UHGV virus genome: UHGV-0151084
Origin: a virus
Length of the DNA: 49,280 nucleotides
Strand: one strand, 5' to 3'
The position numbers and the translations under genes are program-made. Of this stretch, positions 32,517-48,277 are shown one piece after another. The number at the start of each line of letters is the position of its first letter. The first letter of the stretch is position 1. The notes below the pieces were generated by a model. It searched no databases, was not told where the DNA came from, and saw only the letters and a list, made by a program, of their open reading frames with translations.

Positions 32517-32640
32517 CAGATTTCTCCGGTTTAACCAGGGCGGGTATCGCTCGGTTTCGGGTATAACCTTAGGAAATTTTTTCCCACCTGTAAAGCACTT
32601 TTTATATAAATCTATAATTATATATTTATAGATTTTCGAT
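32517..32640 (-). promoter_or_regulatory. Repeated promoter/leader module, copy 2 (directly downstream of Q-like gene)
   Basis: Near-identical to copies at 24998..25115 and 42106..42225. Confidence 0.6.
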
Positions 32641-32685
32641 GTTCCCGATGTCTACACACCATCAAAACAGCTCAAAATGACACTT

Positions 32686-33063
32686 TCACTCTCTTCGCTT
32701 TTTCAAATAGTCGACAACATACGCCCTGGCTTTTGCCAGCTTCCGGCGATACTGTCTGAGACTAAGAGAAAGGGCGTGGGCTTTATCAATATGCGGTGCA
32801 TTTATGTCGAGGCCCCGAATCTCCCACGCCCCGTATTCAATTCGGACAACCAGCGCCGCAGTCTCATCAACTACCGTGAGGGCCGTCACCGCTCCCTCGA
32901 TACTGGTTTCCAGTGAGTCATTTGGTGCGCCGCCCCCTCCGGTAAACTGGCAACGCGTAACCATCATCATTTCTAACATCGACGCGAAACCGCTACGGGC
33001 GTTGCAGCCATTGCGCACCCACAGCGCCCATAGCTCAAACAAGCTATCCAGATCGCGTCTCAC
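32686..33063 (-). CDS. Putative antitermination protein Q-like
   Basis: 125 aa; N-terminal LFELWALWVRNG resembles the LERWGAW pattern of Q-family antiterminators; followed by promoter module. Confidence 0.45.
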   Translation of the reverse strand: MRRDLDSLFELWALWVRNGCNARSGFASMLEMMMVTRCQFTGGGGAPNDSLETSIEGAVTALTVVDETAALVVRIEYGAWEIRGLDINAPHIDKAHALSLSLRQYRRKLAKARAYVVDYLKKRRE

Positions 33064-33066
33064 TGT

Positions 33067-33399
33067 TCAGATCTCCCGTATCGTGACGGGATAAAGCGCC
33101 TCTACCTGCTTTTTCTTCATGATGTAGACGTCTGTTCGCACACCTTTAGTGTCGACACAATCAATCGTCCCATCGTCATAAAACACCATGAAATCAAGTT
33201 TATAAACGACACCACCTGGCAGATTAAAAGGCACCTGCATAAGAAACGTCACAACGCGGCCAGCTTTTCTCAGTAGCTTCAGTTCGCAGTAGTAATCAGC
33301 CTCTTTTTTGCTATCAAAAGCGATATCATCGACAACCGTTTTTTTATTGCCGTATTTGCTTTTCCTGGTCGCTGGTTTGCGAAAGCCGGTATATCTCAT
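33067..33399 (-). CDS. DUF1064-like phage protein
   Basis: 110 aa; KYGNKKT...FDSKKEADYY...YKLDFMVFYDDGT pattern. Confidence 0.5.
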   Translation of the reverse strand: MRYTGFRKPATRKSKYGNKKTVVDDIAFDSKKEADYYCELKLLRKAGRVVTFLMQVPFNLPGGVVYKLDFMVFYDDGTIDCVDTKGVRTDVYIMKKKQVEALYPVTIREI

Positions 33400-33800
33400 T
33401 TGGTATCCCCTGGTACTTCACCAAGACTAAGATCAAACCCAATTTCGTCTTTAACTGACTGCGGCAACAGCTCCCACGTCTGCGCACACAAAAATTCATC
33501 GGTGCCATAACGCTCAACAAAGCGAGCACAATTACTCAGGGGAGGGTGACGAACGGCAATATGCGGAGGCACGCGCCCACCACCAGGCACAACACCGCGA
33601 TGATGTGGTGCGCACAACCCAAAGCTATGGAAGTGGCAATTCTCATCAACGCTGCCGTAATCAGGATCGTGATGTAGCTCCGTCCACAGCTCTGGATTCT
33701 CAATTTCACGGCCATCAATAATGCAAGCTATGCAACCCACGTGAGTGAGCACCGCTTGTATATAAAGTTTCTCTTTCTTCGTTGGTGTACGTCCGTTCAT
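33396..33800 (-). CDS. Putative zinc-binding HNH-like nuclease
   Basis: 134 aa; Cys/His-rich (CIACI, HHDPD, CHFHSFGLCAPHH). Confidence 0.4.
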   Translation of the reverse strand: MNGRTPTKKEKLYIQAVLTHVGCIACIIDGREIENPELWTELHHDPDYGSVDENCHFHSFGLCAPHHRGVVPGGGRVPPHIAVRHPPLSNCARFVERYGTDEFLCAQTWELLPQSVKDEIGFDLSLGEVPGDTK

Positions 33801-34033
33801 CAGCGCCCCTTACCATTGATAAAGAGGTTGAACTCGTTGATTAACTGGACATACATGCTTCTGGCCGCGTAGTTCTTTGCCAGCTCTTTACGGGATGAGA
33901 TCCCGCAAAACTCACGCAGAATCACAGAGGCCTCAGAACTGTTTGAAACGTTCTTCCCTGTTTTACTGGTCAGAAAGCGCCAGAATTGGGGATTCTGGCA
34001 ATGCATCGCAGCACCGCGAACATAACTACTCAT
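33800..34033 (-). CDS. Hypothetical protein
   Basis: 77 aa ORF. Confidence 0.3.
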   Translation of the reverse strand: MSSYVRGAAMHCQNPQFWRFLTSKTGKNVSNSSEASVILREFCGISSRKELAKNYAARSMYVQLINEFNLFINGKGR

Positions 34034-34545
34034 TGATGGCCCCCGTCATTTCTGGTGCTTTTCACCGTGCGGCTTCTTAAAAACCTGCCATCACGAACAA
34101 CAGACACTTCTCGTTTACCCAACCTCATTTCACGGCGGTAACATTCAGAAAATGCCTCGTCCGGCATCATATAAATGCGACGCTTCGCCTCCGTATCCAG
34201 AAGGGAACGGCTTGGGGTTACATATAAAAACGACTCATCAATAGGGACAAAACCACGAGCAAGAATTGCTGGCAGAATGCCAGGAAGAACGCAGAAAACA
34301 GCTCCACGATGCAGCAACATCTGGTACTCCATGACCTCCGTTATCCCCGTGACTACTGTGACGGTGTCACGTCTGTTACGGCTGGCAACCAGTCGCTGCA
34401 CACGTCCAATTTTCTGATCTACAGATAGATGTTTGCTATCGTTATCAATATGATCGATAACAAATCCTTTAATCGTTTGATCAAGGTAGTGCACCACCTG
34501 CGATTGAATCTGGTGATTATCACCAAAGAAGGCCAGAATCATCAT
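34030..34545 (-). CDS. Hypothetical protein
   Basis: 171 aa ORF, coupled to Cro-like gene. Confidence 0.35.
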   Translation of the reverse strand: MMILAFFGDNHQIQSQVVHYLDQTIKGFVIDHIDNDSKHLSVDQKIGRVQRLVASRNRRDTVTVVTGITEVMEYQMLLHRGAVFCVLPGILPAILARGFVPIDESFLYVTPSRSLLDTEAKRRIYMMPDEAFSECYRREMRLGKREVSVVRDGRFLRSRTVKSTRNDGGHQ

Positions 34546-35036
34546 TCCTCAAGCCTCCCAAGTGCTGAACGCCGGGCGTTGCTAATCTCCTTATGAATCA
34601 GCTCGATATCGCTGGAATCTTTATTCTTAAGCTCCAGCACGGTAATCGCATCACGAACCTCTGAAACGGTTACGTGTGAGTGTTTCCAGCGAGCAATGAA
34701 TCGCGGACCGCGTAGATTGCAACGCTCCGCAGGCATCCCCAGCTCAGAGAAAACCGCTTTCAGCCTTGATAAGCAGTTAACAGGGAGGTTCCCTTTGATC
34801 TTGTTCTGCCGAACCGATGTGCCATCGCTACGCTGGCGCTGACGTTCGGCAAAATCTGCCGCCCATTGCTGGACGTTAATCCGGCCTTCCGAATACGCCA
34901 CCAGCAGCGTCAGGTTATCCGCACGAGGGAATCTCTCGAAGCGATACCAGGCACCAATCAGTGATGACGTAAAGCCAAACTTTCTGGCAACACCAATTTG
35001 GCCTCCATTTTCGTCAACCCACTCCTGAAAGGTCAT
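34542..35036 (-). CDS. Cro-like early regulator
   Basis: 164 aa, N-terminal HTH, divergent from CI-like repressor across an operator-rich intergenic region. Confidence 0.5.
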   Translation of the reverse strand: MTFQEWVDENGGQIGVARKFGFTSSLIGAWYRFERFPRADNLTLLVAYSEGRINVQQWAADFAERQRQRSDGTSVRQNKIKGNLPVNCLSRLKAVFSELGMPAERCNLRGPRFIARWKHSHVTVSEVRDAITVLELKNKDSSDIELIHKEISNARRSALGRLEE

Positions 35037-35055: not shown

Positions 35056-35173
35056 ACCACGATATGTGGTATTAAAACCACATATCGTGAGTTTTTCAAT
35101 GGGCGAAACAAAAAATAACCTTCTATTTGTGGTCCACCTCTCGTCTTACCATGTGAAAACCACTAAATGTGGT
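35056..35173. promoter_or_regulatory. Immunity operator cluster (ACCAC-N5-GTGGT sites at 35056-35070, 35077-35091, 35159-35173)
   Basis: Three 15-bp inverted-repeat sites in the divergent Cro-like / CI-like intergenic region. Confidence 0.65.
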
Positions 35174-35210: not shown

Positions 35211-35867
35211 ATGAAAAGCAACGACGAGAACATCAAGAAAGAAATAGGTCTGCGCATTCAGACTCTACGGAAACAATCCGGCATGACTGCCGGAGATCTC
35301 CAGCAAGTCACTGGAATAGGCTTAAGCACCTTGCAGAACTATGAGGCCGGATTAAGACAACCATCTATACCTGCCATCAAGAAAATCGCGCACGCCCTGA
35401 AAGCATCAGCGCCTTATATCGCGTGCTTAACAGATAACCCGTTCCCACCCCAGAATACTAACGCTCCTGTTATTCCTGGGCTTGTAGCTATAAAAAATGA
35501 CATAGCATCGCACGCCGGAGAAAAGCCAGTGCTGGCGATAGAACAGGAGATTCTACGAAGCAAGAACATCAACCCATCGTCTCTGTCAGTTCTCCAGAGC
35601 AACGATGAGTTAATGTCACCAACAATATCCCCTGGCTCCCAAGTCCTGATTGATACAGACGATACAGAGATTCATGAGGGGATCTATGCCCTTGAAGACA
35701 GAAATGGCCTGGTTGTTTTGAGGCACTGTAGAGTCATACCGGGTGACAATGCTGTTATGCTGTCAACCGAAAGGGATGCTGAAATGAACACTAAGCATCT
35801 GAATAACGAGGAATTTAAGCGTTATAAAGTTCTTGGCCGCGTAGTTAGTGTTGTCAACTGGTTATGA
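35211..35867 (+). CDS. CI-like repressor (XRE HTH + S24 LexA-like peptidase domain)
   Basis: 218 aa; N-terminal HTH (LQQVTGIGLSTLQNYEAG), C-terminal S24-like region. Confidence 0.8.
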   Translation: MKSNDENIKKEIGLRIQTLRKQSGMTAGDLQQVTGIGLSTLQNYEAGLRQPSIPAIKKIAHALKASAPYIACLTDNPFPPQNTNAPVIPGLVAIKNDIASHAGEKPVLAIEQEILRSKNINPSSLSVLQSNDELMSPTISPGSQVLIDTDDTEIHEGIYALEDRNGLVVLRHCRVIPGDNAVMLSTERDAEMNTKHLNNEEFKRYKVLGRVVSVVNWL

Positions 35868-35909
35868 TACACAGCACGGCGAAAGCCGTGCATTTCTACG
35901 CTCAAAAAA

Positions 35910-35924
35910 ACCACATTTTGTGGT
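35910..35924. promoter_or_regulatory. Additional operator site (ACCACATTTTGTGGT) downstream of CI-like gene
   Basis: Perfect-armed copy of the ACCAC-N5-GTGGT motif. Confidence 0.55.
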
Positions 35925-35959
35925 TTTGACAACATGTAAAAGTATAAAAGAGGCTACGC

Positions 35960-36334
35960 ATGGAATTACATACAGCCAATAAAAACGAAACTCTGATCAC
36001 TGCTGGAATCGAAATCCAAGCGTTGAACATAGCGATTGAGTGTATGTTATGCCAAATCATTGATAATGAAAAAGATATCGACTGGATAGAATCTATCCTT
36101 CATCTGGCATCAGAACAAAAAGTCTGCCTCAAAACGGCCTTACAATACGATGTGCCAGCGGTATCGAAGCTGTGCCAGCCATTGATGGCATATAACAGGG
36201 CTATTATTTCTGTATGCCTCATGATTCTTGATGAAAACACCCCTCTTAGCGACCGCTCAGAAGCTGCTCTAACACTCTCACGTAAACAGCGACAGCTAGC
36301 AAATCAACTGATATCAACGATAGCTGACCTCTGA
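35960..36334 (+). CDS. Hypothetical protein
   Basis: 124 aa ORF with AAGAGG RBS. Confidence 0.4.
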   Translation: MELHTANKNETLITAGIEIQALNIAIECMLCQIIDNEKDIDWIESILHLASEQKVCLKTALQYDVPAVSKLCQPLMAYNRAIISVCLMILDENTPLSDRSEAALTLSRKQRQLANQLISTIADL

Positions 36335-36364
36335 CTGAAAGCGGGCTAACGCCCGCTTATATGA

Positions 36365-36460
36365 TTATAGATTTATATAATTATATAAAACGCTTTTCAT
36401 CCGCCAAAAAGTTGGTTATGCTTACCTCGTTCTATAAATATAGATTTATATAATTATATA
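36365..36460. repeat. AT-rich iterons (ATAGATTTATATAATTATATAA x2) upstream of parA; candidate partition site / operator
   Basis: Two copies at 36365-36390 and 36431-36460; a third between parA and the ParG-like gene at 37141-37170. Confidence 0.5.
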
Positions 36461-36484
36461 ACCAAACACATGGAGTCTCGACAA

Positions 36485-37138
36485 ATGACTATCTCTGTAG
36501 GTATTTTCAACGGAAAAGGCGGCGTAACCAAATCAACAATTGCCCGTGCTTTAGCAGTTGCTTATGCAAAGGCCGGCTGGAATGTATGCCTGATCGATAT
36601 GGATGTGCTTAACGGAACGGTAACGCGTTGGGTACAACGCAGAATGGCCAACAATATCGAACCTGCAATCGCGGCGCAGCCGTGCGGCACGCCATCACAA
36701 GTCCAGAAAATCATCGAATCAGAAGTATACGACCTGGTTATCGTCGATGGCGGTGCCTACGCATCTGAATCAGTACCGAAGCTCTCTGAATTTCTGGATA
36801 TGGTTATTTTGCCAACCAGATTCTCTACCGATGACCTGGAAACCACCGTTAACACAGCTCATGGCATCGTTAAAAAGGGTGTGCCAATCAAGAAAATTTG
36901 CATGGTGTTCTCAGGCGCGGCTGAAAACGAAGCCGACTACATTGAAGCCCAAGAGTACCTGGCTAATACGCCATACTTTGTTGTCGATAAGTACATTCCC
37001 CACAAGCCAGCTCTGAGCAAAGCTCAGGATAAGGGCTTAAGCCTCATTGAATGCTCATACGTTGCGCCACGCAAAAAGGCAGACGACGTTATTCAGGGGA
37101 TTATCAACCAGCTTGAGGCTCTGACTACTGCCGCGTAA
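36485..37138 (+). CDS. parA: ParA-family partition ATPase (small, type Ib-like)
   Basis: Deviant Walker A GKGGVTKST; start placed at ATG 36485 with GGAG RBS. Confidence 0.8.
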   Translation: MTISVGIFNGKGGVTKSTIARALAVAYAKAGWNVCLIDMDVLNGTVTRWVQRRMANNIEPAIAAQPCGTPSQVQKIIESEVYDLVIVDGGAYASESVPKLSEFLDMVILPTRFSTDDLETTVNTAHGIVKKGVPIKKICMVFSGAAENEADYIEAQEYLANTPYFVVDKYIPHKPALSKAQDKGLSLIECSYVAPRKKADDVIQGIINQLEALTTAA

Positions 37139-37181
37139 TATATAATTATAGTTTTATAGATTTATATAAGAGGGGATACAC

Positions 37182-37430
37182 ATGGCCGCACCATCAAAAC
37201 CACCAAAGAAGAACAGCAAAGGCGTACCGCCATCGATCGAACAACCGCAGGTTTTCGACCCGACTGAAACGCCAGCCAGAACCAAATCAGGTGGGGCACA
37301 AATGGCGTTTAACGTCGACCCTGAATTTAAACGCGAGTACAAAACGTTCGCCAGCTCAATGGATATGTCATTGAAAGAAGTGCTGACAAAATCTTTTGAG
37401 TTACTCAAGGCTCAATACAACCAGAAGTAA
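37182..37430 (+). CDS. ParG-like ribbon-helix-helix partition protein
   Basis: 82 aa, basic disordered N-terminus and C-terminal RHH-like segment, directly after parA. Confidence 0.5.
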   Translation: MAAPSKPPKKNSKGVPPSIEQPQVFDPTETPARTKSGGAQMAFNVDPEFKREYKTFASSMDMSLKEVLTKSFELLKAQYNQK

Positions 37431-37459
37431 GAGAAGGTGACGGCCTCCAGCGCCAACTG

Positions 37460-37642
37460 TTGGCCGTCGCGACACAACAAGGGGAATTTGTTATGTCCGA
37501 ACAACAATATACACGGTTACTGAAAACTCGTCTAACCGACCTCAAACGGCTGCAAGCTGGCCGCTTATTTGCCCTGCTATCCACCAGACCAGAATGGGTA
37601 CGTGAAGCAGTTCTGAAAGGCTTAATGCGCTCCAGCGTTTAA
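37460..37642 (+). CDS. Small hypothetical protein
   Basis: 60 aa ORF. Confidence 0.3.
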   Translation: MAVATQQGEFVMSEQQYTRLLKTRLTDLKRLQAGRLFALLSTRPEWVREAVLKGLMRSSV

Positions 37643-37652
37643 ATTCAACCAT

Positions 37653-37676
37653 AAAAAAGGCCCCCGAAGGGGCCTA
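37653..37676. terminator. Hairpin terminator (GGCCCC-CGAA-GGGGCC) with A/T runs
   Basis: Perfect 6-bp GC stem; T-run on minus strand. Confidence 0.55.
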
Positions 37677-38096
37677 ATCGCTACTTGCTGCTAATGTTTA
37701 TCGTCACATTCAGAGCGTTATCAGTAATCTTCCAACCCTCCCCATGTGGCGTAAACAAAGCTCCAGTAACAACGATAAAAATACACATACAGTATTTTTT
37801 CATTGTATGGCCCTTACAGGCCGTTTCACGGCATCCCCACCGACGAAAACAACGCGAGAGCAAGCACGGCTGCTTGTGCTTGCATGTACGGCAACAGGAA
37901 ATCCTCCCCTAAAGTCGGTGCCCGGGTGCGAATCGGCGGGAAGGTCCACAGGTATTTTACGATTATTTTAAGATTAGTAATAGGAAAGAAATTAAACGAA
38001 AAAAACAGTTTATTTTCACAAAATCAGTAACCTACCCACAATCTGTGAGTTTGCTGACACAACAAGAACCACAATTTTTTGATGTATAATAGTGGA

Positions 38097-38227
38097 CTAT
38101 TATTACCTTTTGAGTAAAATCAATTTGCTGCTTGTGCTTGCGTGGTTGTTTATACAACAACGTAATGCTGAAAGGACCGCGAATCCGATCAGCACGAAAG
38201 AACCGTCCTCAATAGGGCGGTTTTTTT
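38097..38227 (+). ncRNA. Candidate small RNA (extended -10 promoter TGTATAAT at 38083-38090 to terminator at 38199-38227)
   Basis: Promoter-like element followed about 110 nt later by hairpin AACCGUCCU/AGGGCGGUU plus U7; no ORF. Confidence 0.35.
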
Positions 38228-38291
38228 GTTTCTGCCTACCAATAAACCCACGCTATGTGGTTGTCTCTGTTAAAATCCCGCCGTATTGACA

Positions 38292-38396
38292 TGAATGCGC
38301 CATTGGTGGACACTTTCCGAGCCGTAGCAAAATCTACGGTCGGGATTAGCCTCCTGAATAACACGATGGCGCATACCGCGTTAGCGGTTTTTTTAT
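38292..38396 (+). ncRNA. Candidate structured RNA upstream of antirepressor operon
   Basis: TTGAC at 38286, internal hairpin CCGTAG/CTACGG, terminator ACCGC-GTTA-GCGGT + T7; shares GATTAGCCTC with the downstream leader. Confidence 0.3.
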
Positions 38397-38556
38397 GCGT
38401 AGAGCACTGTTACGCCCAAATTATGGTGGGTCGTACAGGGGCGGAGAAATCCGCGCCGGTTCGTCATTGTGTCCGGTAAGGCTAACCCTGTACGGCTCAC
38501 CACCATTTGATTAGCCTCGAATGGCGGTGATAGTTCCATATACTGGAGATATCACA

Positions 38557-38748
38557 ATGACAAACCTACCCCATGACTATTACGTCAACCTCGTAAAGAT
38601 CCTTCTCAAGAAAGCCTCATACGCCGATAAATTCCGCCTGGCTGAAATCATCGAGCGCGAAGCTATGCGCATCGCCAGCAACGATAACGCTGTTTCTGAC
38701 GCAAAAATCTCCCTCGTAACCAAAGTAGTTATGGGAGGTGCAAAATGA
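38557..38748 (+). CDS. Small protein translationally coupled to antirepressor
   Basis: ATG 38557 with GGAG RBS; stop overlaps antirepressor start (ATGA). Confidence 0.4.
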   Translation: MTNLPHDYYVNLVKILLKKASYADKFRLAEIIEREAMRIASNDNAVSDAKISLVTKVVMGGAK

Positions 38749-40013
38749 AAACGCTTCCGACCGTTAACACCCTACAGCCTATCCTGCATAACCAAATCCC
38801 TGTCATTACTACCGAGTTACTGGCACAGCTTTACGGCGTATCTCCTGTACGCATTCGACAAAATCATCATGAGAATAAGGAACGCTTCATTGAAGGTAAG
38901 CACTACTTCAAAATTGAAGGTAACGAACTTCGAGAGTTAAAGCACAAAGTGACTCAAGATAATGATGTGAAGAACAAAAACTCTTTAAGAGATTCAGTTA
39001 ATGACGCCCCCTCTAAAAGAGAGAGCGACGAGCACAGAGTAGTTTTAAACTACTCTGTTAACCACAAGGTAACTAAAAGTCACTCTGTGAAAATCGCCCG
39101 TAACGTTCGCTCCCTCATTCTCTGGACAGAACGCGGGGCTGCACGTCACGCCAAAATGCTTGAAACTAACCAAGCGTGGGATGTGTTCGAACGGCTGGAA
39201 GACTGCTACTTCAACCAGAACGCGCAAACGGCCGCGACCGTAACCGTCTCGCCAAACAATGCTCGTGAGGTTGTCGATACGCTCAACGCCAAACCGATGT
39301 TTTACATTAAGGTGTGCAATAACGAGCCACTCACAACCTCGGCCGATGTTGCCCAGGCATTCAGCACCACAAACAATTCCATCGTTATGGCCATCGATGC
39401 GTTACGCATTCCTCGCACAGCTGCGGCGCGTCATTTCTTTAAAGAGCAACGACCGTTGGAAGGAAGCGACCGCGAAATAACAATCTATCGCATGACAAAA
39501 GACGGATTTACCTTGCTCATGGAGAGCATCGACGGTCCAGGCGTAAAAGATATCAAGCTGGCCTACATTGAAGCCTTTAACGCTATCAGCAGCGTGTTAA
39601 AAACACAGTACGAGCGTGATCTGGCTAAACGACTGTACCAAGAAAAAACGATTATCCGCGCGGCAACAGAGCATAATCGGCTATTAACGGAACCGAACTA
39701 CCGCAAGACACTAATCAAAGAGTTTGACAAGGCGACGGAGAAAACTAAAGCGGCGCTAAGTCTGCCAGCAATGACTCAGGAAAATGTGATATCAGCCTTA
39801 CTTCTTGATCTGCTCAGGAACGCCAGAGCACTTATCAGCTTTGACGAGGACCTGAATCCTCAGCTCAAGCTACTACCACCGACAGGCAAAGTAGTCGACC
39901 AGGCTGATCACAACAGCATACTCAGCGTTCTGGATGCAAACCTGCCAGCCAGGACACTACAGGATCTGATAAAAACATGTGCTGATAAGCTGGCACAGAA
40001 AAGCAGACCATAA
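38745..40013 (+). CDS. Antirepressor (ORF6N-type N-terminal + Rha-type C-terminal domains)
   Basis: 422 aa; N-terminal IPVITTELLAQLYGVSPVRIRQNHHENKERFIEGKHYFKIEG; central TTSADVAQAF...TIYRMTKDGFTLLM resembles Rha. Confidence 0.7.
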   Translation: MKTLPTVNTLQPILHNQIPVITTELLAQLYGVSPVRIRQNHHENKERFIEGKHYFKIEGNELRELKHKVTQDNDVKNKNSLRDSVNDAPSKRESDEHRVVLNYSVNHKVTKSHSVKIARNVRSLILWTERGAARHAKMLETNQAWDVFERLEDCYFNQNAQTAATVTVSPNNAREVVDTLNAKPMFYIKVCNNEPLTTSADVAQAFSTTNNSIVMAIDALRIPRTAAARHFFKEQRPLEGSDREITIYRMTKDGFTLLMESIDGPGVKDIKLAYIEAFNAISSVLKTQYERDLAKRLYQEKTIIRAATEHNRLLTEPNYRKTLIKEFDKATEKTKAALSLPAMTQENVISALLLDLLRNARALISFDEDLNPQLKLLPPTGKVVDQADHNSILSVLDANLPARTLQDLIKTCADKLAQKSRP

Positions 40014-40017
40014 CTAC

Positions 40018-40046
40018 AAGGGGCTACGGCCCCTTACTCTTTTCTC
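40018..40046 (+). terminator. Rho-independent terminator after antirepressor
   Basis: Hairpin AAGGGGC-TACG-GCCCCTT followed by T-rich run. Confidence 0.55.
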
Positions 40047-40821
40047 TCTTATCAACACCAGAGACTTTCTGAAAATCCTTTCGAATAGCGTCAGCGTCAC
40101 GCGCCAACTCCATACTGGAACGTGTCGCCATATGACGAAAATGATCAACTGCCGGAAACAAAGAAATAATGGACCCAATAGCTTGCAGCAAACTCGCTTT
40201 TCTACGCATCATAATTCCACCATAACCGATAACCACCCTTCAGACACAACCCCCCCTCCCCCCATACAGGGTGCCCTTTACCGGAGTTCCGGCCCCTTCT
40301 CAAAAGCATCAAAAAAGCTCGAGATCGAGTACCGGAACTCATGCCACCAGATAGCTCCACATCGTTTCCAATGCTTCGCCGCCGTGTGCGCCCTGTGGCC
40401 CACAATCATGCCATTGGTCGTCTGATATACCTTCTTCTGCTCATAGAGCACAGGCGAGTTGTCGCACTCCTGCCTTTCTCAGACTCGACTTAGTTTAGAT
40501 CGCTGTTCCTAGCTTGCGTCAGCACACTTTCCCCTTGTACGCATACCCGCGCGCCACTTCGCCCAAAAACACCGAACCCAACGAAGTGGCAAAGACAACG
40601 ACGCGAGCGTGAGTCTGAAATGAGCACCAGTAAAAAAGGGGTTGCAGGCGCAAAAAGATTTGATTATCTTTAGACGCAAGAAAGCCGCCCCAATCAAGAG
40701 GTGTCTTTTTAAATCCAGCCTACCAAGCAAGATTTAAATTTCAGACTGAAAACCGCCCGGCAAGGCGGTTTTTGTCTTTCTGGCGCTTACATTACACCAC
40801 CATAAAACGATCCGTAAAGGA

Positions 40822-41094
40822 TCATTTGATCCCTTGTTCCAATTCTGCCGACACTTTAACCTTTTCCCATACAAGGGTTTGCAGCCTTAACAGAATCGCA
40901 TCTTTATCAAGGTGTGAAAGATCCTTAACCATATCGTCAAACGACAGAACGCGAATGGCCATCTCCATGACCCTCGGCGGCACCCCCTTCTCATATCGCT
41001 TATATGTAGCCAACGATATCCCAAACTCTTCGGCGGCTCGCTCCTGCGTCCAGTTCATCCCACGACGCCATAATTTCAATTCGTAACCCGTCAT
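40822..41094 (-). CDS. XRE-family HTH regulator
   Basis: 90 aa; HTH (MNWTQERAAEEFGISLATYKRYEKG). Confidence 0.55.
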   Translation of the reverse strand: MTGYELKLWRRGMNWTQERAAEEFGISLATYKRYEKGVPPRVMEMAIRVLSFDDMVKDLSHLDKDAILLRLQTLVWEKVKVSAELEQGIK

Positions 41095-41195
41095 TACATC
41101 CTCTACCTTTCCCTAGATATTCAATAAATTAGACATAGCCACTCACGACAAAATAAGATGTATTAACAATCCAATCTTTAGGCTTTAGGTAAAAA

Positions 41196-41621
41196 ATGAG
41201 TTCATCTGCTTTTGTCACCGTGGTCACTGGTGTAAGTGTTTTTGTTCTAGGCCAACTCATCGTCAAAGGAGCTATTGAGCCTTACATTTCATTCAGGGAA
41301 CAACTAGGGAAAATATCCAATCTGTTATTGTGTAACCAAGCAAAAATAGTGAATCCTGGCTCGAACTTAAAGCCAGAAATCATTCATGATCTAAAAGATT
41401 CCGCAGCACAGTTAATGGCGAAATATTCCACTTTACCTTTCTATATCAAAAAGTTACATATCGGCTTTCGTCTTGTTCCATCAGACACCGAGATTCTTGG
41501 GGCAGCTCAAAATTTGAACTATATAGCGTCAATACATGAAGGTAAGACTGGGGAGAATCCATCTAAGCATCTCGAAGAGATTGGCCATATGCTCAAAATA
41601 CCAACTACCTATTCAAGCTAA
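41196..41621 (+). CDS. Hypothetical single-pass membrane protein (AT-rich accessory gene)
   Basis: 141 aa; N-terminal TM helix; lower GC than surroundings; divergent from HTH regulator. Confidence 0.4.
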   Translation: MSSSAFVTVVTGVSVFVLGQLIVKGAIEPYISFREQLGKISNLLLCNQAKIVNPGSNLKPEIIHDLKDSAAQLMAKYSTLPFYIKKLHIGFRLVPSDTEILGAAQNLNYIASIHEGKTGENPSKHLEEIGHMLKIPTTYSS

Positions 41622-41724
41622 CCCAATGTAAGTTATCGGCTTGCCCCACAATAAGTTATCTATCTTCAAACGCCCCCTATATTAACACGCGCAAAGTGTC
41701 AAAATGACACTTTGCGCATTGTGT

Positions 41725-42105
41725 TTACTTAACGAGGAATAAAAATGGTTTATTGTTCGGCGGTGTAATCGGGGCTGGCTCGCTTTTGCTCATGCGATCA
41801 GTGTACCAGGCCAACTCCTTGTCAAAGTAAGCCTGATTAAAATAGGCCATGAATGTAGTTTCAAATCCATAACGACCGCTAATACGCAGCATCTGATTGC
41901 CGTTCTCTGTTTCCAGATATACCTGGGCACGTTCCTGATTCTCCTTCAGCCAGGTTAAAGCCTCATCGCATGAGGACACACGATACTCATCATCGTAGCA
42001 GTCATCGATGCGGCTTGAGGAAGAACGGCAAATCACGCCAACAGAACCAGCCAGGATAGTTTGAATTTTAAGGAAAGCGTTTTTGCGGATTTTAATCATG
42101 CTCAT
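41725..42105 (-). CDS. Hypothetical protein, gene behind copy 3 of the repeated promoter module
   Basis: 126 aa; N-terminal hydrophobic signal-like segment. Confidence 0.45.
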   Translation of the reverse strand: MSMIKIRKNAFLKIQTILAGSVGVICRSSSSRIDDCYDDEYRVSSCDEALTWLKENQERAQVYLETENGNQMLRISGRYGFETTFMAYFNQAYFDKELAWYTDRMSKSEPAPITPPNNKPFLFLVK

Positions 42106-42225
42106 CGGGTTATCTCCGGTTTAACCAGGGCGGGTATCGCTCGGTTTCGGGTATAACCTTAGGAAATTTTTTCCCACATGTAAAGCACTTTTTATATAAA
42201 TCTATAATTATATAATTCTGTGAGC
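42106..42225 (-). promoter_or_regulatory. Repeated promoter/leader module, copy 3
   Basis: Near-identical to copies 1 and 2; preceded upstream by a terminator at 42227-42254. Confidence 0.6.
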
Positions 42226-42226
42226 A

Positions 42227-42254
42227 CAAAAAAGCCCCTTTGCAACAGGGGCTT
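42227..42254 (-). terminator. Rho-independent terminator downstream of HigA-like gene
   Basis: Hairpin AGCCCCT/AGGGGCT followed by T6 on minus strand. Confidence 0.6.
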
Positions 42255-42268
42255 ATCATTCGTTCTGA

Positions 42269-42568
42269 TCAGATGTTAAACGCTATTCGTTTTCCTGTGG
42301 GAAGCTCAACATCCAGGCTTAATTTGCCTCCCATAGCTTCAACGTAACGCTTTAATGTCGCCAGCTTTAAATCATTTCCGCGCTGCTCCAGCTTTGTTAC
42401 TGCTGGCTGGCTTATACCCATCGCCTCAGCAACCTGTTTTTGTGATAACTGGAGTTCTTCACGCATCATCTGCAAGCCGACCTCAAGAATCATCTCATCT
42501 GCCATTTCTTTAATTCGCGCCTGGCTTTCCGGTGAACGGCTGGCAATCGCCTCATCTAATGTTCTCAT
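42269..42568 (-). CDS. higA: HigA-like HTH antitoxin
   Basis: 99 aa; HTH (LSQKQVAEAMGISQPAVTKLE); start overlaps toxin stop. Confidence 0.65.
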   Translation of the reverse strand: MRTLDEAIASRSPESQARIKEMADEMILEVGLQMMREELQLSQKQVAEAMGISQPAVTKLEQRGNDLKLATLKRYVEAMGGKLSLDVELPTGKRIAFNI

Positions 42569-42921
42569 TACTTGCTCTCCAGTGTGTTCAGATGTGCTGC
42601 AAACTCATCCTCAGCTATACGCACCAGTTTTTCATAAAACCGCTTATCGTTACTTTTGTCTCCTGCACAAAGAACGATGGCCCGGCGAATCGGATCGAAC
42701 GCATAAAAGGCTCTTATCGGACGGCCAGAAAACTGAACGCGAAGCTCTTTCATATTTTTGTACCGAGAACCTTTTACGGTATCGGCATATGGCCTAGGTA
42801 ACTCAGGTCCGTAAACCTGTAGCTTTTTCAAATCAGCCAAAACCTTTTCCTGAAGAGCGTCTTCTTGCTCATTTAGCCAGTCGTCAAATCGCTGGCTAAA
42901 AAGTACCGTCCACATGCTCAA
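42568..42921 (-). CDS. higB: HigB/RelE-family toxin (addiction-module killer)
   Basis: 117 aa; toxin-upstream-of-antitoxin arrangement; C-terminal region resembles RelE/ParE-superfamily killers. Confidence 0.65.
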   Translation of the reverse strand: MSMWTVLFSQRFDDWLNEQEDALQEKVLADLKKLQVYGPELPRPYADTVKGSRYKNMKELRVQFSGRPIRAFYAFDPIRRAIVLCAGDKSNDKRFYEKLVRIAEDEFAAHLNTLESK

Positions 42922-43159
42922 TCCTATAACCTGTAGTTTATATCACTAACTATATAACCTGTGAGTTATAATTTCAAGAAAAACGGGGCTATTTAACATA
43001 ATGGACGTTATCGGCACCACCGGATCACCGTTCATTGTCGGATCTAAAAAATCCGCTCAAAAGATCATGTTTTCCTGGGCGTTTTCCACCGTTTTTTATG
43101 TTGCTTATTTGTTAATGAAATCTCGTTTTCAGTTTCGCCTCATTTTCGACGCGAAAGCC

Positions 43160-43450
43160 CTATTTTTGTGACTTTACTCCTGGCATATGGACTTCCCAGC
43201 GACGAATCCCCATAGCTGCGCAAAAATCAGCCACATAATTCAATCCCGCCCATTCGCGGATACCACCACGGGCTTTTTCAATGAAAACGGCAATCCCTTT
43301 TTTATTGAGAGCAAAAAGCCGCCAGCTTTTTGTCACTTCGTCCTGGGTAGCCACAACACAAGTGAAAGCTCCCATGCGATACAGGTCCAAGAACTCTTTG
43401 CGTGTTTTGCGTACAAGTTCCATAACAAACCTCATATTTGCATGTTTCAA
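43160..43450 (-). CDS. Hypothetical protein
   Basis: 96 aa ORF. Confidence 0.35.
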   Translation of the reverse strand: MKHANMRFVMELVRKTRKEFLDLYRMGAFTCVVATQDEVTKSWRLFALNKKGIAVFIEKARGGIREWAGLNYVADFCAAMGIRRWEVHMPGVKSQK

Positions 43451-43746
43451 ACATCTGTTTTGTTATCAATGAAGATTAACCCTAACCCAGCGAAGTAACA
43501 CAGCAGCGCCCAGGCTGCATACGGAATGCTGGATCTGGATGTGGACTCCTTTAACATCTGCCAGTTGCGAACATTGCGACTATCTTTTAAGCCTAGTTTT
43601 TTGGCCAACTGCGAGCCGCTCATTCCGGTCAGGCCAATGACTGCCCGAACTTCTCCACATGTAGGAGATTCCCATTCATCCGCTTTTTTTAAACAAGCCG
43701 GATTCAACATTTTTAAAACAGTATCTTTATCCATAACCATCTCCAT
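43447..43746 (-). CDS. Putative HTH DNA-binding protein
   Basis: 99 aa; HTH-like GMSGSQLAKKLGL, hydrophobic C-terminus. Confidence 0.35.
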   Translation of the reverse strand: MEMVMDKDTVLKMLNPACLKKADEWESPTCGEVRAVIGLTGMSGSQLAKKLGLKDSRNVRNWQMLKESTSRSSIPYAAWALLCYFAGLGLIFIDNKTDV

Positions 43747-44227
43747 TTATTATATCTACGATGGTAGGAAATCTTTTCCTATGTGGCAATAGAAATTTAC
43801 TACATTGCGTATAAGACAAGTTTTCTATGTCTAATAGGACATGATGTTTCTTACGTTTTATCGCGTTCTGATGGCTACTGTGTGCGTATTTATCGACGTT
43901 TATTGATAAGGCTCGCCCCTTCCTCCTGCAAAGCCCGGCCGTAGGCCTTATTTCGGCCTTATATAAATTGATTTTGTATAGTTCGAAACGCGCCGTTTCG
44001 AAAAGGATGATCAGGCTGCTCCATGCCTCCGGCAAGTGCCGGAGGAGGTATATTTGAGCGTAGCGACTCGAACCGGCGCGAGCTTTAGCTCGCTGCAAGG
44101 GCGAACATATTCACAGGCAAAGCCTGCGTAAGTTAAATAAAGAAAGTCTTAATAAAAGAAAGTGATTTTGCATTTATTTGTTTAGTGCATCTATTATAAA
44201 AAACCATTTGCATATACATATCAAAAC

Positions 44228-44236
44228 TGTGGATAA
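44228..44236. promoter_or_regulatory. DnaA box (TTATCCACA on minus strand) within putative oriR downstream of repA
   Basis: Perfect consensus 9-mer in AT-rich region 44150-44300 about 140 bp after repA stop. Confidence 0.5.
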
Positions 44237-44377
44237 CTTTATTAGCCGATGCCTGTAAAGGCGATATTTTTGCTGTGTTCAGGTTTAGAGAAAATTAATT
44301 TAGATTGTTTTTTGAACAGATATTTTATTGCGACGTAGATAATCCTCCGGTAAAACCGGATTCATCATTCAGGTGGG

Positions 44378-45226
44378 TTAATGTTGGAGTGATTTCCAAG
44401 TCTTTCTTAACCTGTTATAACGCTGCTCAACGAGGGATCGTAAATATGCAAGGTCAGCTCCAGGATACATGCCATCAGCAAATTCCTGGCTAACCTCTCT
44501 AGTGATTTGATGACGAAGTTCGGCCTCTCCCTTTTCCCGAACAAGACGCGCAGCTCTCTCCGCTGCTTTCTGTTTTGCCTTTATCTCTCTGGCCGTCTTC
44601 CTCTGACGCCATACATTCTCCATCTGCTCCTGAATAACAATACGCTTATAATCAGCCTCCGTTATCGCTTTTTTAAGCCGTTCGCTATTCTTCGCATTGA
44701 AGTAATTAAGTTTCTGGCTAACCGCACGTCTCCATGCTTGTTCAGTAATACCAACGGTTTCCAGCAGTTGATCACGAATCTCTATTTTCGCTGGCCAATA
44801 CTGTTTATTCACCCGATCCCAGCGACGTTCATAATCAATAAAACCTAACGCTTTCAGTTGCGACAACGCCCTTGTACAGCGCGTTATAGACTTGTTCCCA
44901 GCTTCGGATACGGTAGACAGACCGCAAAAATCAGCCAACGCCTCAGCACTGGCCAGAACCCGCTTAGAAATGATGTTTACATGGTGCAAAATCGCAGCAA
45001 TCACAGCATTAATCGCCCGACGACGATGCTCGTTTATCCGGCGTTTCCGCTCTGACGGTTGATTAACGTAGAACGCAACCTCACACGTAAGATCACGACC
45101 ATTAATGCGCTGTAAAGCATCAGATAACACCAGCGGCAGCTTGTGCGTATGGTGCTTTGGAGGCTGGAACTCCGGCGACAAATTACAAACGTAAGCTGAA
45201 CGTAGAGACGGCATTGGTCTATCCAT
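44378..45226 (-). CDS. repA: Replication initiator RepA, IncFII (RepFIIA)-type
   Basis: Central region LSTVSEAGNKSITRCTRALSQLKALGFIDYE aligns with IncFII RepA1 (LATESAAGKLSITRATRALTFLSELGLITYQ); start placed at internal ATG 45226. Confidence 0.8.
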   Translation of the reverse strand: MDRPMPSLRSAYVCNLSPEFQPPKHHTHKLPLVLSDALQRINGRDLTCEVAFYVNQPSERKRRINEHRRRAINAVIAAILHHVNIISKRVLASAEALADFCGLSTVSEAGNKSITRCTRALSQLKALGFIDYERRWDRVNKQYWPAKIEIRDQLLETVGITEQAWRRAVSQKLNYFNAKNSERLKKAITEADYKRIVIQEQMENVWRQRKTAREIKAKQKAAERAARLVREKGEAELRHQITREVSQEFADGMYPGADLAYLRSLVEQRYNRLRKTWKSLQH

Positions 45227-45241
45227 ATGTTCGCTCTTGCG

Positions 45242-45348
45242 TCCACGGAAAACCAACGTATAATGGGAGTTGTCGAGGCGCCCATGGTTAATTGTTGGTT
45301 TTCCGTGGATGTCGCAAGAAGCCCGCAGATTTATCTGCGGGCTTTTTG
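45242..45348 (+). ncRNA. Candidate CopA-like antisense RNA in repA leader
   Basis: Plus strand: perfect 16-bp inverted repeat (45242-45257 / 45294-45309) then terminator GCCCGCAGAT/ATCTGCGGGC + T5, antisense to the repA 5' region. Confidence 0.45.
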
Positions 45349-45536
45349 TTTCCATATCTGGTCGCTTTCCAACCAGACACCCACAATCATAACCACGTTA
45401 CGTGGTTTTAAGAGAACTCTACCACAACACTTTCGGTCATGCACGAAGTCTCTCACTGATCGAACGATAATCCACCAGTAAAAGGATCTAAATTGGATCT
45501 CGTTTTGCGAGCATCATACTACTGGCCTAACTCCAG

Positions 45537-46091
45537 TCAATGATTCCCAGCCGGAAACCTGCGGTAAAGCGTGGATAAGGTAACATCGAAGATAATCGCT
45601 ATCCGCTTACGTGAAACACCATTCGCAATAAGCCTTCCGATCTGTTCCCATTGCTCTGGGGCCAATTTTGAGCGGCGTCCTCCTATCCTGCCATTAGCCC
45701 TTGCCACCGCCAATCCTGCACGCGTTCTTTCAATCATATTTTCCCGCTCCATCTCTGCGACTGCACTCAGCATCGTGTAGGCAAAGCGGCCAATTGAAGT
45801 GCTAATTTTTATCCCTTCCGTAATCGAAATAAACTCAATGTTGTTTGATAAAAAATGGTTAAGTAAATCAACAAGATGAATCAGAGAACGCCCCATTCGA
45901 TCCAGCTTCCAGACAATAACCGTATCGCCCGGCCGTAACACCTTCAGTAGCTTATCAAGCCCTGGTCGTTTTGATTTAGCACCGGATATTTTATCTTCAA
46001 AAATCCGGTCACATCCTGAACTCCTGAGCGCCTCCAGTTGTAATTCCAAATTCTGGTCAAAAGTTGACACCCTCGCATAACCATATTGCAT
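45537..46091 (-). CDS. Serine DNA invertase, Gin/Cin/Hin family
   Basis: 184 aa; YARVSTFDQ catalytic-serine motif, C-terminal HTH; 64 bp from gix-like site B. Confidence 0.85.
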   Translation of the reverse strand: MQYGYARVSTFDQNLELQLEALRSSGCDRIFEDKISGAKSKRPGLDKLLKVLRPGDTVIVWKLDRMGRSLIHLVDLLNHFLSNNIEFISITEGIKISTSIGRFAYTMLSAVAEMERENMIERTRAGLAVARANGRIGGRRSKLAPEQWEQIGRLIANGVSRKRIAIIFDVTLSTLYRRFPAGNH

Positions 46092-46119: not shown

Positions 46120-46194
46120 GCGGGAAAAAATATCGTTCAGACGACACAGAGGCAATTCGCAAAAACCTCGGTTTACAGGAAACGGTAAACAAGG
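46120..46194. repeat. Left arm of inverted repeat flanking invertible tail-fibre cassettes
   Basis: 75 bp with 2 mismatches to the reverse complement of 49206-49280. Confidence 0.8.
46156..46181. other. gix-like recombination site B (TTCGCAAAAACCTCGGTTTACAGGAA)
   Basis: Inverted relative to sites A and C. Confidence 0.6.
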
Positions 46195-46205
46195 CTGGTA
46201 ACGCC

Positions 46206-47186
46206 GTGCAAAAGACAGGCGATACCTTGTCCGGTGGACTTACTTTTGAAAACGACTCAATCCTTGCCTGGATTCGGAATACTGACTGGGCAAAGATTGG
46301 ATTTAAAAATGATGCCGACAGCGACACTGATTCATACATGTGGTTTGAAACAGGCGACAACGGCAATGAATATTTCAAATGGAGAAGCAAACAAAGCACC
46401 ACAACAAAAGACCTGATGAATCTTAAATGGGATGCTTTGTATGTTCTTGTCAATGCCATTGTAAATGGCGAAGTCATATCAAAATCAGCAAACGGCCTAC
46501 GTATTGCTTATGGTAATTACGGATTCTTTATTCGTAATGATGGTTCAAATACATACTTCATGTTGACAAACTCCGGTGACAACATGGGGACTTATAACGG
46601 ATTAAGGCCATTATGGATTAATAACGCTACTGGCGCTGTTTCGATGGGGCGTGGCCTTAATGTTTCAGGGGAGACACTTTCAGACCGTTTTGCTATTAAC
46701 AGCAGTAATGGTATGTGGATTCAGATGCGCGATAACAACGCTATCTTTGGGAAAAATATAGTTAACACTGATAGCGCTCAGGCGTTGCTTCGCCAGAATC
46801 ACGCCGACCGAAAGTTCATGATAGGTGGACTGGGGAACAAGCAATTTGGCATCTACATGATTAATAACTCAAGGACAGCCAATGGCACCGATGGTCAGGC
46901 GTACATGGATAATAACGGGAACTGGCTTTGCGGCTCGCAAGTTATTCCCGGAAACTATGGCAATTTTGACTCCAGATATGTGAAAGATGTTCGACTTGGT
47001 TCACAGCAATATTATGGAGTGAACAACTGGCAAACATGGAATTTCCAGTGCCCGTCAGGTCATGTATTGTCTGGTATTAATGTTCAGGATACAGGGTCCA
47101 ACTCTGCCGATAATATAGCGGGCGTTTATTACAGACCCGTTCAAAAGTATATAAATGGCACCTGGTATAATGTAGCGAGCGTTTAA
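46206..47186 (+). CDS. Tail fibre variable C-terminal cassette (Sv'-like), currently not joined to the constant region
   Basis: Frame is open from 46101 through site B; first residues [15 protein letters not shown] identical to the end of the constant gene at the window start. Confidence 0.75.
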
Positions 47187-47187
47187 T

Positions 47188-47715
47188 ATGATGCACTTAA
47201 AGAACATAAAAGCGGGTAACGCTAAAACACTGGAACAGTATGAGTTAACAAAGAAACACGGAGTTATCTGGCTTTACTCTGAGGACGGAAAAAACTGGTA
47301 TGAGGAAGTGAAAAACTTTCAGTCAGACACAATAAAGATTGTTTACGATGCAAATAATATTATTGTCGCCATCACTAAAGATGCCTCCACGCTTAACCCT
47401 GAAGGTTTTAGCGTCGTTGAGGTTCCAGATATTACAGCCAACCGCCGCGCTGATGATTCAGGAAAGTGGATGTTTAAGGATGGAGCTGTAGTTAAACGGA
47501 TTTATACGGCAGACGAACAGCAACAACAAGCCGAATCACAAAAGGCCGCATTGCTTTCCGAAGCTGAATCAGTCATCCAGCCGCTGGAACGCGCTGTCAG
47601 GCTGAATATGGCAACAGACGAGGAACGCACACGACTGGAAACATGGGAACGCTACAGTGTTCTGGTCAGCCGTGTGGATACGGCAAATCCTGAATGGCCA
47701 CAAAAGCCTGAGTAA
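47188..47715 (+). CDS. Tail fibre assembly protein (Tfa, U'-like)
   Basis: 175 aa; conserved Tfa pattern (NWYEE...[14 protein letters not shown]...KWMFKDG). Confidence 0.8.
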
Positions 47716-47721
47716 AAATTA

Positions 47722-47740
47722 AGGCCCGATATCGGGCCTT
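47722..47740. terminator. Bidirectional hairpin between convergent Tfa genes
   Basis: AGGCCCGATATCGGGCCT palindrome. Confidence 0.5.
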
Positions 47741-47743
47741 CTC

Positions 47744-48277
47744 TCATTCTGGTTGTTCGGGAAACGTTACTGGCAGGCTGGAGGTGTCTGTGGATTCGAC
47801 TTTCTGCGCGTAGAGCATCCACTCGGTTAATTTTTGTTTATTCTCGTCGGAAATGATGCCCAGCCGTAGCTGTGAGTCCCATAGCTGGGTTTTATCCCTG
47901 ACAAGTTGCAACAGGCTTTGCTTTTCATTCTCTGCCTGCTGCCTCTGTTCCTCCTCGGTATAAGTTCGCTTTATCACTACGCCATCTTTGAACATCCATT
48001 TACCCGAAATATCAGCCCGGCGATTTGCTGTAATATCAGGTAATTCAACGACGCTTGCGCCTTCTGGATTAATTGCTGAAACATCCTTTTCAATACAAAT
48101 AATAACGCCGTTGTGGTCATAGACCATTTTCAACGTATCAGGCTGAAAGTTCTTTTGTTCCTCATACCAGTTTTCCCCATCCTCTGTATAAAGCCATTTG
48201 ATGTTAAATTGTTTCGTTAGCTGGTATTGCTCTTTTGTTTTAGGGTTGCCAGCAGTAATATTTTTTAAGTGCATCAT
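47744..48277 (-). CDS. Tail fibre assembly protein (Tfa, U-like)
   Basis: 177 aa paralog of 47188..47715. Confidence 0.8.
   Translation of the reverse strand: MMHLKNITAGNPKTKEQYQLTKQFNIKWLYTEDGENWYEEQKNFQPDTLKMVYDHNGVIICIEKDVSAINPEGASVVELPDITANRRADISGKWMFKDGVVIKRTYTEEEQRQQAENEKQSLLQLVRDKTQLWDSQLRLGIISDENKQKLTEWMLYAQKVESTDTSSLPVTFPEQPE

Follow-up and report, generated by a model that had tools for sequence, protein, structure and literature searches.

Phage-plasmids, which spread genes by infection as well as through plasmid inheritance, frequently end up filed wrongly as 'unnamed plasmids' or escape prophage-finding tools. One such example is P1: like P7 and D6, this temperate myovirus persists in circular plasmid form and encodes a replicon, a partition system and an addiction module of its own, an organization that is shared by the element described here. 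In P1, the replicon is an iteron-controlled RepA and partition is mediated by ParA/ParB/parS. Another example is N15, a linear siphovirus with a protelomerase, where repA, the plasmid's replication gene, is under the control of the prophage repressor CB as well; the N15 RepA is of the primase-helicase type and is unrelated to the IncFII RepA. Among plasmid partition loci, parH of TP228 has a repeat periodicity of 8 bp. The element considered here is virus genome UHGV-0151084, a stretch of 49,280 nt that was analysed at its full length and is referred to below as the window. The window very probably represents the whole genome of a temperate myovirus, which is maintained in Escherichia coli as a circular plasmid of ~49 kb and not as an integrated prophage. 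The first-pass annotation of this DNA had proposed an extrachromosomal prophage, likely a phage-plasmid, and this is supported by the closure of the window into a circle, by the lack of an integrase, and by the existence of both plasmid-borne relatives and relatives deposited as phages. Taken together, the phage-plasmid reading is about as firm as sequence data permit. Phage-plasmids as such are known, and sequences of this family have been deposited in abundance, but the family itself seems to be undescribed.

Bases 1-55 of the window are the exact reverse complement of 46165-46219, and the last 77 bases (49204-49280) are the reverse complement of 46120-46196 at 97% identity, so that each end consists of a 32-bp crossover site together with bases from the opposite orientation of an invertible segment (23 at the start and 45 at the end). 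When the sites at 24-55 and 49204-49235 are superposed, a closed circle of 49,180 bp is obtained with an in-frame tail fibre of 763 aa (Sc-Sv), and the alternative join implied by the first 23 bases yields an in-frame fibre of 785 aa (Sc-Sv'). Judging from these joins, the contig is a circular replicon that was broken by the assembler at the invertible repeat. Because the window closes on itself at the crossover sites, it has no chromosomal flanks in which attL/attR sites and a neighbouring integrase could lie, and the circularity that the first-pass annotation had left to be checked follows from the overlap in the 32-bp site.

The segment in question (Sv', U', U, Sv; 46165-49235) shows 92-95% DNA identity to the C-segment of P1 and the G-segment of Mu. 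Its crossover sites lie at 46165-46196 and 49204-49235, with the third copy at window positions 24-55, and it is adjoined by a gene for a Gin/Cin-type DNA invertase of 184 aa (45537-46091, minus strand; Pfam Resolvase, 2.6e-44, and HTH_7). The Sc-Sv and Sc-Sv' fusions are both in frame, and the locus therefore has the parts of a host-range switch of the Gin/Cin/Hin type, namely a small serine invertase next to a segment with inverted crossover sites and alternative fibre ends. Both orientations of the segment are apparently present in the sequenced population, and their presence in the assembly ends suggests that the invertase is active.

This invertase was the sole recombinase found, as had been claimed earlier. 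Neither a tyrosine or large serine recombinase nor a transposase was detected by Pfam or PHROGs scans of 34 open reading frames (ORFs), which comprised the maintenance region, the early region and the unannotated large ORFs, or in near-identical plasmids annotated with NCBI's PGAP pipeline. No integrase was found, and the element instead carries plasmid replication, partition and addiction genes. The first-pass annotation had also seen no att-like tRNA junction. This is correct for the att junction; the annotation overlooked a tRNA gene (26017-26092, minus strand), which is internal to the element, intact, and found at the same place in circular plasmid and phage records. The gene was called tRNA-Met (anticodon CAU) by ARAGORN and is ~90% identical to an E. 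coli chromosomal gene annotated as tRNA-Ile; it may be an AUA-reading tRNA-Ile2 that serves the AT-rich late genes.

The phage side of the element is complete. The virion module (1443-19832, minus strand), which was delimited by its ORFs and by DNA identity, encodes baseplate, tail, tape measure, sheath, capsid, a ClpP-type protease, portal, the large terminase and a ParB/Srx-domain protein, and the head is of the lambda type with a ClpP protease. This module is collinear with, and shows 98.7-99.5% DNA identity to, PGAP-annotated plasmids, among them that of E. coli ATCC 25922 (48,488 bp). The lysis cassette (26386-27868, minus strand), with two holins, a GH108 lysozyme and a small downstream ORF, is likewise collinear with genes annotated on the ATCC 25922 plasmid. 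None of the large ORFs for virion, lysis or regulatory proteins is interrupted, and the full virion, lysis and immunity gene set that had been reported for the window is present, with more than 98% DNA identity to annotated relatives for the virion and lysis genes. The element thus combines a virion, packaging and lysis set with a RepA, an origin and a partition locus, lacks an integration module and a chromosomal flank, and has relatives that exist as separate replicons, which are among the features by which a phage-plasmid is recognised.

Comparison of the maintenance region, RepA, the virion module and the large terminase with plasmid and phage records, along the lines suggested with the first-pass annotation, returned relatives of both kinds. 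The 23-kb virion module was found in 74 of 5,426 complete E. coli genomes (~1.4%), including the quality-control strain ATCC 25922, and 102 of its 105 places in these genomes are on plasmid records. Among the best 60 records, 57 are 46-57 kb in size, the others being 32, 39 and 94 kb, and 360 PLSDB records, mostly typed as non-mobilizable, match the maintenance region. On the phage side, Yersinia phages vB_YpM_39/41/44 have been deposited in GenBank as circular 49-kb records with Y. pestis EV76 as the host; they show ~96-97% identity to the window over the maintenance region, 98.5-99.4% in RepA and 99.8% in the large terminase. Beyond the family, the large terminases of the Vibrio myoviruses X29, phi 2 and Rostov 7 share 63-65% identity with that of the window. 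The family lies outside the ten typed phage-plasmid types (AB_1, P1_1, P1_2, N15, SSU5_pHCM2, pMT1, pCAV, pSLy3, pKpn and cp32); the pSLy3 group was considered as its identity and rejected, as pSLy3 is an SSU5-type group. No account of the family was found in the literature by accession, phage name or description. The one paper found to mention family members, an in-silico study, counts vB_EcoM-613R2/473R2 among predicted prophages that have 'ParB without ParA', and does not class them as plasmid prophages.

The replicon of the element centres on a repA ORF of the IncFII superfamily (44378-45355, minus strand; Pfam IncFII_repA, PF02387, E=1.3e-43). The description of this protein as an IncFII-type RepA holds at the level of the Pfam superfamily, but the protein is distant from the classical IncFII RepA, with 31-39% identity over 80-125 residues and a score of 78.6 bits against NCBIfam TIGR03474 incFII_RepA (far under the cut-off of 446.9), and it fits NCBIfam NF040977 RepA_IncFII_LM instead (231.5 bits, cut-off 70). 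As RepA is 100% identical to that of plasmid NZ_CP009861, it is intact and not the product of a pseudogene, a possibility that the earlier annotation had raised against its own reading. The first ATG of the ORF (Met1) is missing in the 81-85% identical relatives L008 and L010, where the upstream frame is broken or shifted, and the conserved start is probably Met48 (ATG at 45214), which agrees with family models that begin at residue 52-57. In L010 the upstream frame is a 61-codon ORF ending in ATGA at the repA start, in the window it is fused in frame, and in L008 it is interrupted, so that no conserved leader peptide could be defined before repA given the differences among lineages. There is also no copB: the gap from the gin stop (45537) to the repA ORF measures only ~180 bp and contains no ORF of the right orientation. 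A repA promoter, TTGACT-16-TATGAT, was predicted at 45513-45540 (minus strand) and is conserved in L008. At the predicted start of the repA transcript are two GATCC motifs 11 nt apart (45484-45499, minus strand), which do not change in the 81-85% identical relatives, whereas the intervening bases do; this pair is possibly a Dam/SeqA-sensitive or protein-binding site.

Downstream of repA lies the origin of replication (44040-44240, minus strand), with a DnaA box, three ATGCA(A/C) repeats and an AT-rich tract, conserved in the relatives L018 and L019. The exact DnaA box, TTATCCACA, occurs as a single copy in 49 kb, at 44228-44236 (minus strand), in the orientation of repA and 142 bp past the repA stop; near matches in the window number 13, which is the chance level. 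The box opens a non-coding block of ~200 bp that is nearly invariant in L018 and L019 even though the spacer to repA has diverged beyond recognition, and this retention of the block while the spacer diverged is the signature of a cis-acting origin. The DnaA-box origin that had been proposed therefore rests on the only exact box, placed downstream of repA in a conserved non-coding block.

A CopA-like antisense RNA had been proposed as well. The search for CopA (RF00042) gave no Rfam match at the gathering threshold or at E<=5, and a CopA homologue was rejected on this ground; what remains of the proposal is a well-supported antisense RNA candidate, not homologous to CopA, in the same position within the repA leader. 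This candidate for copy-number control (~45270-45352, plus strand) consists of two hairpins and a U-run, with a fold of -41 kcal/mol (z=-6.1), and is preceded by a predicted promoter, TTGCGT-16-TATAAT at 45238-45265 (plus strand), from which a transcript of ~85 nt would be made. Among lineages with differing flanks, hardly any change is seen in the ~135 nt that precede the conserved repA start. Across five variants of the candidate, the promoter and terminator are invariant, apart from one compensatory A:U to G:C change in the terminator, and the variation, length changes included, is almost wholly confined to the apical part of hairpin 1 (window 45294-45310 and the equivalents in L003, L007, L008 and L010), which is the only strongly variable stretch in the otherwise invariant leader. 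In antisense-controlled replicons, the apical loop of a hairpin usually holds the incompatibility specificity, and the apical loop seen here may delimit incompatibility sub-groups among family members.

On the sense strand, the repA leader folds into a long hairpin with three compensatory pairs, as well as one U:G pair that works on this strand only, and this hairpin pairs the AAGAG tract before the repA start with the upstream CUUCUUGCG. From the fold and its variants, we conclude that the predicted countertranscript would work like CopA/CopT of R1 or the RNAI of IncL/M and I-complex plasmids while standing outside the CopA family. In the proposed mechanism, the level of RepA synthesis would be set by the ~85-nt antisense RNA transcribed from within the repA leader, which would pair with the long leader hairpin in which the purine tract ahead of the conserved repA start is sequestered. 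A search for relatives of RepA gave none in one-genome-per-species contigs and only ten loci from three lineages in IMG/VR, and for this reason the covariation evidence is thin. A distant RepA (36% identity, L013) belongs to an Enterobacter plasmid with type IV secretion system genes, typed as mobilizable (relaxase MOBC), which is not a phage.

The immunity genes of the element resemble those of P1 in part. A cI-like repressor gene (35211-35867, plus strand) encodes a protein of 218 aa with a helix-turn-helix (HTH) domain (Pfam HTH_3, 4.5e-11) and a Peptidase_S24 match of 20 bits, under the 23.3 cut-off. The repressor is 66% identical in L018 with a nearly invariant HTH, and a search of PDB with the repressor matched the HTH domain only, with no solved S24 structure aligned to the C-terminus. 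Further along is a P1 ImmI-like operon (38247-40013, plus strand; identified with Rfam and Pfam), which comprises isrK (38321-38394; Rfam, 65.7 bits, cut-off 50), a C4 RNA (38419-38507; Rfam, 70.8 bits, cut-off 45), an icd-like ORF of 75 aa (38521-38748) and an antirepressor gene (38745-40013; Pfam ORF6N and Phage_pRha), all on the plus strand. The order of a C4 RNA upstream of a small ORF and an antirepressor gene is that of the ImmI-type c4-icd-ant arrangement. Given this C4-controlled antirepressor, induction may proceed through the antirepressor instead of through self-cleavage of the repressor. A search for LexA boxes returned a single match at chance level inside a structural gene, and thus no evidence of direct SOS control.

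Candidate operators for the repressor are provided by the palindrome ACCAC-N5-GTGGT, which has eight matches with at most one mismatch in the window against 0.75 expected. The four exact copies, at 35056, 35159, 35910 and 45392, are confined to the cI region and the repA leader. Two of them (35056-35070 and 35159-35173) make up a divergent control region (35056-35173) between the repressor gene and the divergent early operon, an arrangement also found in L001, L002 and L018. The third (35910-35924) is just past the repressor gene and upstream of an unknown ORF at 35960-36334, in a position that is conserved in L018, while the fourth (45392-45406) is inside the repA leader. An operator with one mismatch (38247-38261) is just upstream of the isrK/C4/antirepressor operon. 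The ATCC 25922 plasmid and the Yersinia phage carry the palindrome at the same four positions, and the palindrome in the repA leader is present in every family locus that includes the leader; in L008 and L010 both half-sites are kept and the central 5 nt differ. The Enterobacter plasmid L013 has no copy of the palindrome. In the proposed circuit, the cI-like repressor would hold lysogeny at these operators, with release through the antirepressor controlled by C4 and isrK.

In the early operon (28255-35036, minus strand), almost all proteins are 'unknown' in PHROGs, apart from a Ref-type nuclease, a DUF1064 resolvase-like protein and a DUF3560 protein that matches a PHROG annotated as primase. 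Neither a replication initiator nor a helicase loader could be recognised in this operon, and no phage-type replication genes were detected in the window, the DUF3560 protein with its primase-PHROG match being the sole hint. Because an operator lies in the repA leader and no phage-type replication module was found, the phage repressor probably also damps repA, and induction would then turn the plasmid replicon into a lytic replicon. The wider proposal, in which one replicon serves both lifestyles, with RepA and its origin held by the antisense RNA and by the cI-like repressor in the repA leader until inactivation of the repressor makes the replicon lytic, is offered tentatively, as a possible reading that we would not yet favour over its negation.

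Partition would be carried out by a locus downstream of the repressor gene. A small Walker-type ParA of 217-222 aa (36470-37138, plus strand; Pfam CbiA/ParA/MipZ), as named in the first-pass annotation, matches NCBIfam ParA_partition at 4.7e-22, under the cut-off, and has a weak match to ParF of TP228 (4dzz, E=3e-4). It is 96% identical in L018, where the start corresponds to Met6, and Met6 (36485) is the probable start in the window. The protein has no N-terminal DNA-binding domain, as is the case for the small ATPases of type Ib systems. Two blocks of four 8-bp TTATAKAW repeats each (32 bp; 36357-36388 and 36430-36461) are found upstream of parA as a candidate centromere or operator, and a third 32-bp block (37138-37169) lies between parA and the gene that follows it. 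These blocks, which are the iterons noted earlier at the par locus, occupy the same three places in the divergent relative L018.

The gene that follows parA (37182-37430, plus strand) encodes a protein of 82 aa that is a candidate centromere-binding partner by its position. The suggestion that this partner is ParG-like could not be upheld: Pfam, NCBIfam and PDB (phmmer and profile searches) gave no match, with only close homologues found, and Foldseek returned nothing for the AlphaFold model. This model (pLDDT, the predicted local distance difference test, 65) shows two C-terminal helices after a disordered N-terminal half, an architecture that would be in keeping with a ribbon-helix-helix protein that has a flexible tail. 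ParA and the 82-aa protein would segregate copies of the element through the TTATAKAW blocks. Separate from this ParA locus, three proteins with ParB/Srx N-terminal domains, one of which is fused to a methyltransferase domain, are encoded beside the terminase genes (19242-23122, minus strand); this cluster has served as an ambiguous plasmid marker in a published in-silico survey.

Two toxin systems were found in the maintenance region. In the first, a Gp49/HigB-like toxin gene (42568-42921, minus strand; Pfam Gp49, PF05973, 5.7e-23; named 'RelE/ParE family toxin' by PGAP) precedes, with a 1-nt overlap, a gene for an HTH_3 antitoxin of the HigA type (42269-42568, minus strand; Pfam HTH_3, 3.9e-10), which is the gene order of HigBA systems and bears out the HigB/HigA-like toxin-antitoxin of the first reading. 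The second was absent from that reading. The ryfA gene is reported to encode the toxin TimP, which is paired with the small RNA (sRNA) TimR, and such a module is defined by a ryfA-type RNA with an ORF of ~38 codons and a neighbouring sRNA complementary to its 5' untranslated region (5'UTR) at a site far upstream of the start codon (PMC7667032). The window has the same arrangement at 37653-38226: a ryfA/timP-like RNA (37653-37949, minus strand; Rfam RF00126, 143.5 bits, cut-off 80), a type I toxin candidate with a 40-codon ORF at 37681-37803, lies next to a TimR-like sRNA candidate (38098-38226, plus strand; fold z=-5.3, with a terminal hairpin and a U-run), of which positions 38127-38144 are complementary at 17 of 18 nt to the timP-like 5'UTR at 37869-37886, 66-83 nt upstream of the ATG. 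This module is present in 61 plasmid records, all of them non-mobilizable plasmids of ~47-49 kb, and is almost never annotated; in the ATCC 25922 plasmid, an HTH regulator gene stands in its place. In the proposed scheme, the two systems would kill cells that lose the element.

Several points weigh against the account given above. Virion production, infectivity and the plasmid copy state rest on the types of database records, no paper was found on the Yersinia isolates vB_YpM_39/41/44, and three of the 105 places of the virion module in complete genomes are chromosomal. For the partner of ParA, neither homology nor a confident fold could be detected, and the antisense RNA rests on five sequence variants from three lineages. 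For the proposed control of repA, the protein that binds the operators is assigned by position only, and the operator in the repA leader is placed ~100 nt downstream from the promoter predicted for repA, where no second promoter of good quality overlaps it. One alternative explanation is a plasmid that carries a decayed or non-functional prophage, which would replicate and segregate without making infectious particles. Nearly all relatives are deposited simply as unnamed plasmids, and the in-silico paper on vB_EcoM-613R2/473R2 did not treat them as plasmid prophages. Decay is at odds, however, with the open state of all large virion, lysis and regulatory ORFs and with the 98.7-99.5% identity of the virion module across dozens of independent isolates, which fits purifying selection; three family members were moreover deposited as phages with a named propagation host, and the two orientations of the host-range switch in the assembly ends suggest an active invertase. 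We regard a decayed prophage as improbable.

The chromosomal places also bear on a second alternative, that of an ordinary integrated prophage with its integrase and att sites just outside the window, for which the tRNA gene could be invoked too, since such genes are a common type of attachment target. Yet the tRNA gene is internal and complete and keeps its place in the circular records of phages and plasmids, the closure of the window on itself leaves the tail fibre in frame, no integrase was found and 102 of the 105 places are on plasmid records, which makes integration very unlikely. An assembly chimera of a phage contig and a plasmid contig is the least probable of the explanations, to the point of being barely credible. 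The contig does end in a repeat, and its last 45 and first 23 bases come from the alternative orientation, so that the assembler was locally confused; the same order of phage and plasmid genes nevertheless recurs in more than 50 independently assembled complete replicons, among them several ATCC 25922 assemblies, and in the Yersinia phage genomes.

With all of its parts readable, this compact element would offer a convenient model for a plasmid replicon that is subordinated to a lysis-lysogeny switch, and the family would also be useful for the question of how antisense-RNA loops diversify incompatibility among co-circulating phage-plasmids. If the tentative proposal of one replicon for both lifestyles is true, incompatibility between sub-lineages would be determined by the hypervariable apical loop of the antisense RNA. 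Much of the maintenance machinery is missed by annotation pipelines, as the unannotated timP/timR-like module and the antisense RNA illustrate.

Among the known systems, P1 is the one with which the window shares most of its regulatory and accessory parts: the C4/icd/antirepressor operon, a Ref-type nuclease, a Cin/Gin invertase and the invertible S/U fibre segment, with 92-95% DNA identity in the last of these. The two differ in size (49 kb as opposed to ~94 kb), in the head, which is of the lambda type with a ClpP protease in the window as opposed to that of P1, and in the tail genes. Cre/lox, a separate lytic replicon such as repL and a C1-type repressor, all features of P1, were not found in the window. 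In place of the P1 replicon and partition system, the window has an IncFII-superfamily RepA with its antisense candidate, and a small ParA with an 82-aa partner.

The partition locus is comparable to ParF/ParG/parH of TP228 (type Ib), where a small Walker ATPase is likewise followed by a protein of ~80 aa and where repeats with an 8-bp period lie upstream of the ATPase gene. Unlike TP228, the window has a partner without detectable similarity to ParG or to ribbon-helix-helix proteins, its repeats are TTATAKAW, and a third block of them lies between the two genes. For the replicon, the nearest described systems are IncFII R1/R100 (copB-copA-tap-repA-oriR), IncL/M and the I-complex, with which the window shares the Pfam family of RepA and an origin downstream of repA that begins with a DnaA box. 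R1/R100 and the window also share a small two-hairpin countertranscript in the repA leader, which in the window is a candidate; the mechanism of CopA in R1 has been summarised (PMC7667032, with its references 66 and 67). As opposed to R1/R100, the window has no Rfam CopA, no room for copB and no leader peptide that could be defined as conserved, and it has an operator of the phage-repressor type in the leader. For the proposed coupling of the phage repressor to repA, the control of repA by the repressor of N15 is a precedent.

The closest virion chassis outside the family is found in the Vibrio X29/phi 2 group, where the large terminase of X29 is 63% identical to that of the window. X29 (L021) and the window have the same gene order, which runs from the ParB-like nuclease through the terminases, adaptor, portal, ClpP protease, decoration, capsid, sheath, tube, tape measure and baseplate to the fibre. 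The annotated proteins of X29 include two tyrosine integrases, an Xis-like protein, an O-like initiator and a DnaC-like loader, none of which occur in the window; the window carries its RepA/ori, ParA and toxin-antitoxin modules where X29 has the integrases and the O/DnaC-like module. As far as gene content and order can tell, the comparison of X29 with the window is a clean example of a lifestyle module swap. If a single replicon does serve both lifestyles, the lineage would derive from an integrative X29-like myovirus in which the integrase and O/DnaC-type genes were swapped for a plasmid cassette that became wired into the immunity circuit.

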